In this document: one piece after another, positions 22,780 to 23,444 of the stretch
How positions within the stretch are numbered: position 1 is the first letter of the stretch
Layout: each line of letters opens with the position of its first letter
NCBI GenBank assembly: GCA_963705915.1
Contig: OY970126.1
Coordinates: 232,306 to 296,305, forward strand
Source: an uncultured bacterium
Lineage (GTDB): Bacteria > Patescibacteriota > Minisyncoccia > UBA6257 > 2-01-FULL-56-20
Reading direction: 5' to 3'
DNA: 64,000 nt
Translations under genes and position numbers: made by a program
Notes under the pieces: model-generated
Seen by the model: the letters and a program-made list of their open reading frames with translations, nothing else
The model's database searches: none
Told to the model about the DNA's origin: nothing

Positions 22780-22844
22780 GAGTTCATTTTATCATTTTGT
22801 GCGCAGGCGTGGACGCCTTTCAAACTTCGCCTTACAACAACGCC

Positions 22845-22873
22845 TTGTTAAGTAAGGGTAATCCTGATATTCT
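22845..22873 (+). promoter_or_regulatory. sigma70-like promoter TTGTTA-N17-TATTCT, 3 nt upstream of ATG (leaderless or near-leaderless)
   Basis: -35 22845-22850, -10 22868-22873, ATG 22877; alternative ATG 22895 with GAGG at 22887-22890. Confidence 0.3.
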
Positions 22874-22876
22874 GCA

Positions 22877-23071
22877 ATGAGAAAGCGAGGTTTTATGTAC
22901 GAGTGTCACTGCCCTTGTCACGGAAAGAATGGCGTAGGCATAGCGGACCATTGCAGGCCTTGTTGCGAGCTGTGTCCCCATTGCCACACCAACATCATGA
23001 TTGGATGCATGGAAGCGCACCTCAAAGAAAGTCATCCCGGCGTAGACGCGTCAGCCGTTTTCCCGAGCTAG
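22877..23071 (+). CDS. putative Cys/His-rich small protein (64 aa; 9 Cys, 7 His), possible metal-binding peptide
   Basis: ORF bracketed by candidate promoter and strong Rho-independent terminator 38 nt after stop; sequence YECHCPCHG...HCRPCCELCPHCH. Confidence 0.3.
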   Translation: MRKRGFMYECHCPCHGKNGVGIADHCRPCCELCPHCHTNIMIGCMEAHLKESHPGVDASAVFPS

Positions 23072-23108
23072 CAGCGGAAGCGGCGAAGAAGCCTTCGTAT
23101 CGACCAAA

Positions 23109-23140
23109 TCGACGATTCCGTTATCGTCGATTTATTTTTT
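23109..23140 (+). terminator. Rho-independent terminator (8-bp stem TCGACGAT/ATCGTCGA + TTTATTTTTT)
   Basis: Perfect 8-bp stem, 6-nt loop, 10-nt T-rich tract. Confidence 0.6.
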
Positions 23141-23144
23141 CATC

Positions 23145-23160
23145 GTGCGCAGGGCAGGAT
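23145..23160. repeat. 16-nt exact direct repeat of the tRNA-Tyr 3' end (GTGCGCAGGGCAGGAT; second copy 23318-23333 inside the tRNA)
   Basis: Exact 16/16 match in the same orientation, 157 nt apart; looks like an att-site duplication. Confidence 0.6.
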
Positions 23161-23161
23161 G

Positions 23162-23315
23162 GCGCGTAAGAACGCGCGGAATTGGTTCGCTCGGAGAAAA
23201 TACAATCTTCCATTCTATTTTCTCCTCGCTGCCAATTCCCGAACCCTGAAGGGTTCTCATCCCGCCTTCATACGAGCAACAAAAATGAATGTCTTTTAGA
23301 CATTCATTTTTGTTG
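23162..23315. repeat. highly structured 154-nt tRNA trailer: four consecutive hairpins including a perfect 17-bp palindrome abutting the tRNA 3' end
   Basis: H1 23162-23177 (GCGCGT/ACGCGC), H2 23178-23239 (GGAATTGG...CCAATTCC with inner 10-bp stem), H3 23241-23256 (GAACCC/GGGTTC), H4 23277-23315 (CAACAAAAATGAATGTC-ttta a-GACATTCATTTTTGTTG). Confidence 0.7.
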
Positions 23316-23400
23316 TGGTGCGCAGGGCAGGATTCGAACCTGCGTAGCCCATTGGGCGACAGATTTACAGTCTGTTGCGATTGGCCGCTCCGCCACCTGC
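23316..23400 (-). tRNA. tRNA-Tyr(GTA), class II with long variable arm, CCA encoded
   Basis: Minus-strand sequence GCGCAGG...anticodon loop CUGUAAA...long variable arm...TPsiC GGTTCGAATCC...CCTGCGC-A-CCA; 7-bp acceptor stem. Confidence 0.85.
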
Positions 23401-23444
23401 GCAGAGCAATATTGTTATACTATGTTTCCGAAAAATACGGAAGG

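Follow-up and report, generated by a model that had tools for sequence, protein, structure and literature searches.

The locus and its mini-gene

The 64,000-nucleotide stretch of contig OY970126.1 analysed here (hereafter the window) contains, between the genes for RecO and tRNA-Tyr, a short Cys- and His-rich open reading frame (ORF) that is provided with expression signals of its own. In its longest form the ORF (22877–23071, + strand) encodes 64 residues including nine Cys and seven His, exactly as the first-pass annotation had described it. Upstream, the hexamers TTGTTA (22845–22850) and TATTCT (22868–22873) are separated by a 17-nt spacer, and can be read from the sequence as a promoter on the + strand (22845–22873). 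This promoter agrees with the sigma-70 consensus at 8 of 12 positions, and is missing from the list produced by our consensus promoter scan because the threshold of the scan is nine matching positions. On the other side of the ORF, a stem-loop with 11 base pairs and a 6-nt loop (23106–23133) begins 34 nt past the stop codon and is followed by ATTTTTT. The complete intrinsic terminator spans 23106–23143 on the + strand, where the stem-loop continues into ATTTTTTCAT. A terminator had been noted at this place before, but the earlier figures of an 8-bp stem and a distance of 38 nt from the stop codon need to be corrected. Terminator-like sites are not enriched in the region, with three found against 2.9 expected, and Rfam detects only tRNA there, with no family above threshold on the strand of the mini-gene. 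Taken from promoter to terminator, segment 22845–23143 is strongly supported as a self-contained and independently expressed unit.

As for the start codon, two ATG triplets had been proposed. The first (22877) begins 3 nt past the −10 hexamer, which is too close for it to be included in a transcript from this promoter. The second (22895) is preceded at a distance of 4 nt by a GAGG Shine-Dalgarno sequence, read from the sequence at 22887–22890 on the + strand, and is also where the alignment with homologous proteins begins (YECHC). For these three reasons the second ATG is probably the true start, in which case the coding sequence is 22895–23071 (+ strand), comprising 58 codons plus stop, and the product is MYECHCPCHGKNGVGIADHCRPCCELCPHCHTNIMIGCMEAHLKESHPGVDASAVFPS. 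The composition of the window peptide is unusual, with 15.5% Cys and 12% His.

Relatives of the window peptide

An exhaustive phmmer search over 1.84 billion representative proteins, with a cut-off of E ≤ 1e-3, returned 29 relatives of the window peptide. The best of these, P0001, aligns with an E-value of 7.6e-16 and 63% identity over 54 residues, and a hidden Markov model (HMM) of the family scores the window ORF at 72 bits. When the codons of the window gene are threaded onto the P0001 gene (contig L009), the 52 aligned codons show 15, 15, and 34 differences at the first, second, and third positions, respectively, and 20 of the 34 identical residues are specified by different codons. The corresponding proportions of nonsynonymous (pN) and synonymous (pS) differences are 0.28 and 0.97, the latter being saturated. 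The substitutions are thus biased by reading frame in the manner that the first-pass annotation had named as the check on its claim of a real small gene. The P0001 gene is identical in the two contigs that carry it (L009 and L010), so that a close pair for dN/dS is lacking, and since none of the other genes in L010 has an orthologue in the window, the divergence between the two loci is not calibrated.

The expression signals have also been retained among relatives. The P0001 gene is preceded by the same two hexamers at the same 17-nt spacing, in line with the promoter proposed for the window, and the two loci differ in spacer sequence as well as in flanking genes. P0001 is further equipped with an AGGAGG Shine-Dalgarno sequence on the 5' side, and with a GC hairpin followed by T6 on the 3' side. 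A Shine-Dalgarno sequence of the GGAG type precedes the gene in all the other cellular homologues that we examined, and four of these five have a hairpin and a T-run on the 3' side. The relatives and the substitution pattern show that the mini-ORF is a real gene, and its maintenance by selection is strongly supported.

A word-index search of 5.8 billion proteins with the peptide gave no match. A public contig from the Logan collection (L004, from ERR11523672) is identical to the window in the segment corresponding to the mini-gene (296–490, − strand), and yet the mini-ORF is not called there as a gene, which explains why the peptide is absent from the protein collection and the word-index search is empty. 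A tblastn-confirmed scan of 185,579 species genomes also gave no match to the peptide, and the same was true for GenBank phages (at the DNA and protein levels), PLSDB plasmids, and scans of IMG/VR with single proteins. The only tblastn match in metagenomes (L003:3808–3867) was rejected as a chance Cys-rich antisense frame of a Gfo/Idh/MocA-like oxidoreductase gene on a high-GC contig; its E-value against the family HMM is 0.26.

Conserved ligands and predicted fold

Alignments of 26, 32, and 47 sequences, and a conservation table of 48 sequences, all agree on the features of the family. In the following, ligands are numbered according to the 64-residue form, and the secondary structure predicted by AlphaFold2 (AF2) according to the 58-residue form. 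Conservation is highest over the central 45 residues, including the His ligands, while the termini are variable. Cys10, Cys12, Cys14, His15, Cys29, Cys30, Cys36, and His48 are invariant in the 48 sequences, His25 and Cys33 are present in 47, and the last ligand is provided either by His53 (27 sequences) or by Cys52 (20 sequences). Cys26 is present in only 24 of the 48. Four positions that are not ligands, Pro28, Pro34, Asn39, and Ile40, are also conserved in 35–42 of the sequences. Because the Cys and His residues constitute the conserved core, with eleven near-invariant ligand positions, metal binding by this core is very likely as judged from the alignments. The eleven ligands may accommodate two or three Zn(II) ions with a structural role, where both geometry and stoichiometry are guesses.

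The last four ligand positions follow the pattern C-x2-C-x11-H-x3/4-(H/C), which in the window protein reads C33-x2-C36-x11-H48-x4-H53, and this spacing fits the C2H2/C2HC finger pattern C-x2-4-C-x11-12-H-x3-5-(H/C). Of two AF2 models, the first has a predicted local distance difference test (pLDDT) of 75.5, and the second, made for the 58-residue form, one of 83.0. Strands are predicted at residues 24–26 and 33–35, and a helix at residues 39–46, with pLDDT values of 88–92 in these segments, and the helix that follows the two-stranded hairpin carries the last two finger ligands. The prediction strongly supports that this part forms a β-β-α finger of the C2H2/C2HC type, similar to UBZ and TRAF fingers. 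A profile search against the PDB gave weak matches confined to the C-terminal finger (CTCF at 0.0036 and the RAD18 UBZ at 0.007, together with LYAR and FLN29), and local superposition with Foldseek on C2H2 fingers resulted in root-mean-square deviations of 1.4–2.2 Å over 25–29 residues, with E-values that were not significant.

The seven ligand positions in the N-terminal part follow the pattern CxCxCH-x7-13-H-x3-CC. Neither profile nor library searches gave a match to this segment, and we infer that it forms a metal-binding knot without a described counterpart. The window protein has no match in Pfam at E ≤ 1, and when 32 members were compared with Pfam and NCBIfam, no family model was found; the single member to pass the Pfam threshold for zf_UBZ is P0013, from a metagenome-assembled genome of Candidatus Buchananbacteria, which scores 26.2 bits at a cut-off of 25.6 bits. 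PHROGs and PADLOC contain no model for the family, and nothing was found in the literature on the motif, or on small zinc fingers in bacteria of the candidate phyla radiation (CPR). Judging from these comparisons, the gene appears to found or join an undescribed family of small zinc-finger proteins common to CPR bacteria and phages.

The domain also occurs within proteins of 170–340 residues. Tandem copies of the domain, or regions of 100–200 residues without a Pfam match, are seen among P0005, P0013 (two copies), P0002, P0007, and P0028, and the N-terminus of P0007 has a separate CxxC...CxxC motif.

The tRNA-Tyr flank

The tRNA-Tyr gene (anticodon GTA; 23316–23402, − strand) is the presumed integration target at this locus, and partial copies of its 3' end are present on both sides of the mini-gene. 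The 16-mer GTGCGCAGGGCAGGAT is found within the tRNA gene at 23318 and again at 23145. The second occurrence reproduces the 3' end of the tRNA at all 16 positions (copy B; 23145–23160, − strand, where it reads ATCCTGCCCTGCGCAC) and constitutes the inner boundary of the cassette. A degenerate copy of approximately the last 25 nt of the tRNA (copy A; 22785–22825, − strand, sequence gtttgaaaggcgtccacgcCTGCGCAC, core CTGCGCAC) is placed upstream of RecO, at a distance of 19 nt from the start codon, and would represent the outer boundary of the inserted DNA. The + strand 9-mer GTGCGCAGG is located in copy A at 22799–22807, and occurs three times in the 64 kb, each time within 22799–23326, where 0.49 occurrences are expected. 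The att-like repeat reported in the first-pass annotation is thus present as two 16-mers and a third, shorter copy. The tRNA-Gln gene in the window has no comparable repeats.

In the orientation of the tRNA, the order of elements is the tRNA-Tyr 3' end, 155 bp of non-coding DNA, copy B, the mini-gene cassette pointing at the tRNA, copy A, and RecO. As read from the sequence, this layout is that expected from repeated integration at a tRNA 3' end, with the displaced original end left beside RecO. The 155-bp segment (23161–23315) is probably a remnant of a later insertion. It contains two hairpins (23193–23225 and 23277–23315), one with 14-nt arms of 93% complementarity, and the other with a perfect 18-bp stem that adjoins the tRNA. 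The hairpin at 23277–23315 is probably the terminator of tRNA-Tyr. An Rfam match to the ylbH leader over the same 155 bp (24.6 bits against a cut-off of 50 bits) is regarded as noise. Copy A coincides with a promoter-like site facing RecO (22794–22823, − strand; TTGAAA-N18-CAAAAT), in which the decayed T-arm gives a −35-like hexamer, and similar arrangements of a tRNA end and a promoter precede downstream genes in contigs L061 (at 4526) and L063 (at 1938).

The RecO relatives found for the window organism carry the label Candidatus Paceibacterota. The closest of these for which DNA is available (L059–L064) have 71–76% identity and share the RecO-DUF11-aminoacyl-tRNA synthetase-murA-mreB synteny; RecO relatives from the species-genome set (L001 and L002, at about 50% identity) are too distant for a comparison of synteny. 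No member of the mini-gene family is present within ±5 kb in L059–L064. Instead, L061 has kept rpsB-tsf-131aa-tRNA-Tyr and carries a DUF1003 gene between the tRNA and RecO, flanked by two copies of the tRNA end, and in L063 other genes, one of them for a Laminin_G_3 protein, take up about 3.2 kb of this interval, with copies at 990 and 1938. In L059, a tRNA-Leu gene is located directly before RecO. The insert regions compared are 22785–23333 in the window, 3584–4540 in L061, and 708–1950 in L063. In this lineage of Paceibacterota-like genomes, the tRNA-Tyr/RecO flank is a hot spot with changing cargo. Since the relatives carry other inserts at the same flank, bounded by similar copies of the tRNA end, the mini-gene can be seen as one such cargo, and the comparison supports the view that the cassette was delivered by an old integration at the tRNA-Tyr 3' end. 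The earlier suggestion of horizontally acquired cargo agrees with this, the cassette being placed between copies of the tRNA-Tyr 3' end, and the nearest relatives lacking it at the corresponding site.

Genomic contexts of the family

As judged from the contexts below, the family is common to Paceibacterota-like CPR bacteria and phages. The cellular copies are intact, stand-alone genes in CPR-like genomes, with promoters of their own, and are found among housekeeping genes. Apart from the window copy, with RecO and tRNA-Tyr as neighbours, family members are located near rplI, cysS, and dnaB (L005), between pheS and cca, the latter encoding the CCA-adding enzyme (P0001; L009 and L010), after the atp operon (L011), upstream of rpsL-rpsG-fusA-tuf (L013), and within the spc operon, in the interval from rplE to rpsN (L017 and L018). 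The member in the spc operon, P0004 (L017:8001–8243 and L018:2784–3026), is accompanied by an ORF of 71 residues and a DUF2283 gene, and the adjacent rpsN gene encodes 61 residues.

In phages, the gene order is polA-DUF4326-X-NADAR in three contigs (L006–L008), where X denotes the family member, and SSB-X-DUF4326 in two others (L015 and L016), where X is a 340-residue protein carrying the domain. The family member and the DUF4326 gene overlap by 10–20 nt and have opposite orders in these two phage lineages (L006:2330–2781 and L015:8001–9357; also in L007, L008, and L016). Two scans of IMG/VR with degenerate DNA motifs gave 40 motif matches, of which the HMM served to eliminate approximately half as false, leaving about 13 distinct true members. 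In two of the IMG/VR contigs (L020:5947–6471 and L024:11106–11585) the domain forms an N-terminal fusion with a YspA/DprA-like SLOG domain (PF10686 at 3e-11 and PF02481 at 7e-9). The IMG/VR neighbours include genes for ribonucleotide reductase, ThyA, DHFR, PolA, RNase H, nucleases, and 7-deazaguanine synthesis, and L023 has FolE2, QueD-like, and QueE-like genes of the last pathway as neighbours. Two genes for Acb1, an anti-CBASS phosphodiesterase, were seen among 94 neighbours of the viral members (loci L019–L058).

Function and alternative explanations

On balance, we favour the reading that the mini-gene encodes a small protein binding several zinc ions, which belongs to an undescribed family and arrived as inserted cargo at tRNA-Tyr, although this preference is far from certainty. 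According to this reading, the sigma-70-like promoter would give a short leader with the GAGG Shine-Dalgarno sequence followed by the 58-codon gene, and transcription would end at the intrinsic terminator. The product would fold around two or three structural Zn(II) ions, with the N-terminal knot placed ahead of the C-terminal β-β-α finger, and would serve as a zinc-stabilised binding module, with an adaptor role towards a protein partner or a nucleic acid, rather than catalysing a reaction, storing metal, or being processed to a peptide. The cassette would have been integrated at the tRNA-Tyr 3' end long ago, and the integrase would since have been lost. The binding-module role is the most likely function in our view, and at the same time the weakest step of the proposal. 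A partner in DNA replication, recombination, or nucleotide metabolism is weakly suggested by the phage neighbours (DNA polymerase, SSB, ribonucleotide reductase, and thymidylate synthase), by the overlaps with DUF4326 and the fusions to SLOG, and by RecO in the window. The net charge of the core has a median of −1.5 and ranges from −10 to +8 among the family sequences, for which reason the protein is not expected to be a uniformly basic nucleic-acid binder.

Several observations weigh against this reading. Zinc binding as well as the partner are predictions, made from sequence and from a model. The seven N-terminal ligands do not split neatly into two tetrahedral sites, and fold searches against solved structures and viral predicted structures gave no significant match to the whole domain. 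The slightly acidic average of the core seems to argue against a conserved surface for binding nucleic acid. The cellular neighbourhoods are heterogeneous and without a conserved partner gene, and the small size of CPR genomes means that almost any neighbour will be a housekeeping gene. The links to DUF4326 and SLOG rest on two phage lineages each. With respect to the expression unit, the 8/12 match of the promoter to the consensus has to be considered, together with the fact that its conservation, as read from the sequences, rests on one independent homologous locus. As for the insertion, no integrase or recombinase is present in the 508-bp interval that separates copy A from the tRNA, where only the mini-gene and hairpins are found, and none was seen in the inserts of the relatives; neither was an empty site or an active element found. 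The anomaly in composition is weak, with a GC content of 0.548 in the ORF (0.627 at third codon positions) compared with 0.50 in the window and 0.50–0.52 in neighbouring genes, and is in part dictated by the codons.

An alternative that we consider unlikely, but that deserves attention, is a phage-derived accessory protein (“moron”) acting in virus-host conflict. The zinc module would then belong to a viral network for NAD+/ADP-ribose or nucleotide signals and bind either an immune protein or a ligand of the ADP-ribosyl or nucleotide type. Copies in bacteria would be domesticated or left behind by prophages. The overlap with DUF4326 in two unrelated phage lineages, once beside NADAR, is in agreement with such a role, as are the two SLOG fusions, the two Acb1 genes, and the position of the window copy in inserted DNA at a tRNA attachment (att) site. 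These observations are however few in number as far as independent cases are concerned, and most of the approximately 13 viral contexts show only generic genes for replication and nucleotide metabolism. Furthermore, the family matches nothing in PADLOC or PHROGs, and the cellular copies are intact genes with own promoters among housekeeping genes. A more far-reaching proposal combines this network with the locus studied here: the module may be a new zinc domain for ligand or target recognition in phage processing of NAD+/ADP-ribose and nucleotide signals, with phosphatase-like DUF4326, NADAR, and SLOG proteins as partners, and may have been captured by CPR bacteria as integrase-free mini-cassettes, complete from promoter to terminator, that gather at att sites in tRNA 3' ends. 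We regard this as speculative and rather improbable.

Equally improbable in our judgement is a metallothionein-like metal buffer or zinc chaperone, in which several Zn, Cu, or Cd ions would be held in a thiolate cluster for storage, detoxification, or delivery, for instance to zinc-ribbon ribosomal proteins. The Cys and His contents are suggestive in this respect, as is the Cys-x-Cys-x-Cys motif, which is typical of metallothioneins, and the member in the spc operon is placed beside the gene for an S14 protein of 61 residues, i.e., the zinc type. The bacterial metallothioneins SmtA and BmtA comprise about 56 residues, employ Cys as well as His ligands, and contain a zinc-finger-like sub-fold, which also speaks for a similarity. 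On the other hand, the Pfam family of bacterial metallothioneins is not matched, and none of the 32 members matches a metallothionein model in Pfam or NCBIfam. The spacing of the ligands is conserved together with Pro28, Pro34, Asn39, and Ile40, pLDDT reaches 92 in the part predicted as a β-β-α fold, and the domain is known from fusions to SLOG and other domains as well as from phage replication modules. Genes for ArsR/SmtB-type or other metal regulators, or for metal transporters, are not found nearby in the window, in L005, L009–L013, and L017, or in the other contexts examined. Of the metallothionein-like, metal-binding peptide suggested in the first-pass annotation, the metal binding is very likely to stand, considering the eleven near-invariant ligands, while the model searches, the predicted finger fold, and the genomic context speak against membership among the metallothioneins.

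The second suggestion made at that stage, a precursor of a ribosomally synthesised and post-translationally modified peptide (RiPP), i.e., a Cys-rich peptide that is converted to a thioether, thiazole, or disulfide-rich product and exported, would agree with the small size, the richness in Cys, and the separate promoter and terminator. We consider it effectively refuted, as far as can be read from context and conservation pattern: neither the window nor about 20 homologous contexts have an adjoining gene for a maturase (radical-SAM, YcaO, or lanthipeptide synthetase), protease, or transporter, the entire domain is conserved with invariant His and Cys and a predicted globular fold instead of a leader and a variable core, and the domain is found inside the larger proteins noted above. 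That the ORF is spurious, with promoter and terminator serving a non-coding RNA, or the region being a decayed remnant of an integrated element, might be argued from its being uncalled in the identical Logan contig, absent from the word index, and located in decayed inserted DNA, but is hardly credible considering the 29 homologues with an invariant Cys/His pattern, the strong third-position bias of the substitutions, the 72-bit HMM score, and the lack of an Rfam match.

Returning to the small multi-zinc protein that we favour, a new small zinc-finger protein is in itself not very surprising. The interest of this case is instead that a conserved family of small proteins, with an unusual signature of eleven Cys/His ligands, has been missed by gene callers and domain libraries. 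If its partner does belong to recombination and replication (RecO, SSB, or DprA-like SLOG), or to the processing of ADP-ribose and nucleotides (DUF4326 or NADAR), the family would offer a handle on poorly understood aspects of CPR and phage biology. Moreover, the locus documents how the tRNA-Tyr flank in Paceibacterota-like genomes collects small segments of cargo between decayed copies of the tRNA end.

Comparison with known systems

The closest structural parallels are C2H2/C2HC fingers, especially those of the UBZ4 type in RAD18 and WRNIP1 (zf_UBZ, PF18439) and of the TRAF/LYAR type. As in these fingers, the C-terminal part of the window family has the pattern CP-x-C-x11-H-x3/4-(H/C), with a conserved hydrophobic N-I after the second Cys, and the window protein is predicted to have a helix after two short strands. 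The window family differs in the seven-ligand CxCxCH...H...CC segment that is added ahead of the finger and apparently packs against it, and in having a core that is acidic to neutral and not basic. Unlike UBZ-type fingers, it is found in bacteria and phages, where ubiquitin is absent.

Bacterial metallothioneins such as SmtA and BmtA resemble the window family in size, in the mixed Cys/His ligation, in the Cys-x-Cys motifs, and in the expectation of several metal ions per approximately 55 residues. However, the window family lacks a match to metallothionein models and a metal-regulatory context, conserves spacing and non-ligand residues, is predicted to form a finger, and is also encountered in phages and within larger proteins. 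The small zinc-finger micro-proteins of the CPxCG type in archaea and bacteria, and small regulators of the zinc-ribbon kind such as YacG and anti-TRAP, are similar in being stand-alone proteins of 50–70 residues that have a CPxCG knuckle, bind partners, and often are not annotated. Their zinc ribbons are of the C4 kind, built from two or four CxxC knuckles, whereas the window family has a single CPxC, a helix end with His and His/Cys, and the unique CxCxCH/H/CC segment, and no homology between the window family and these proteins was detected.

With respect to the insertion, the window resembles tRNA-targeted integrative elements and islets, as the insert lies between direct repeats derived from the 3' end of the tRNA, a decayed original end is found beside RecO, and the cargo varies among relatives. 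It differs from such elements in that the insert is only about 0.5 kb, has no integrase, and consists of a single mini-gene that extends from promoter to terminator.

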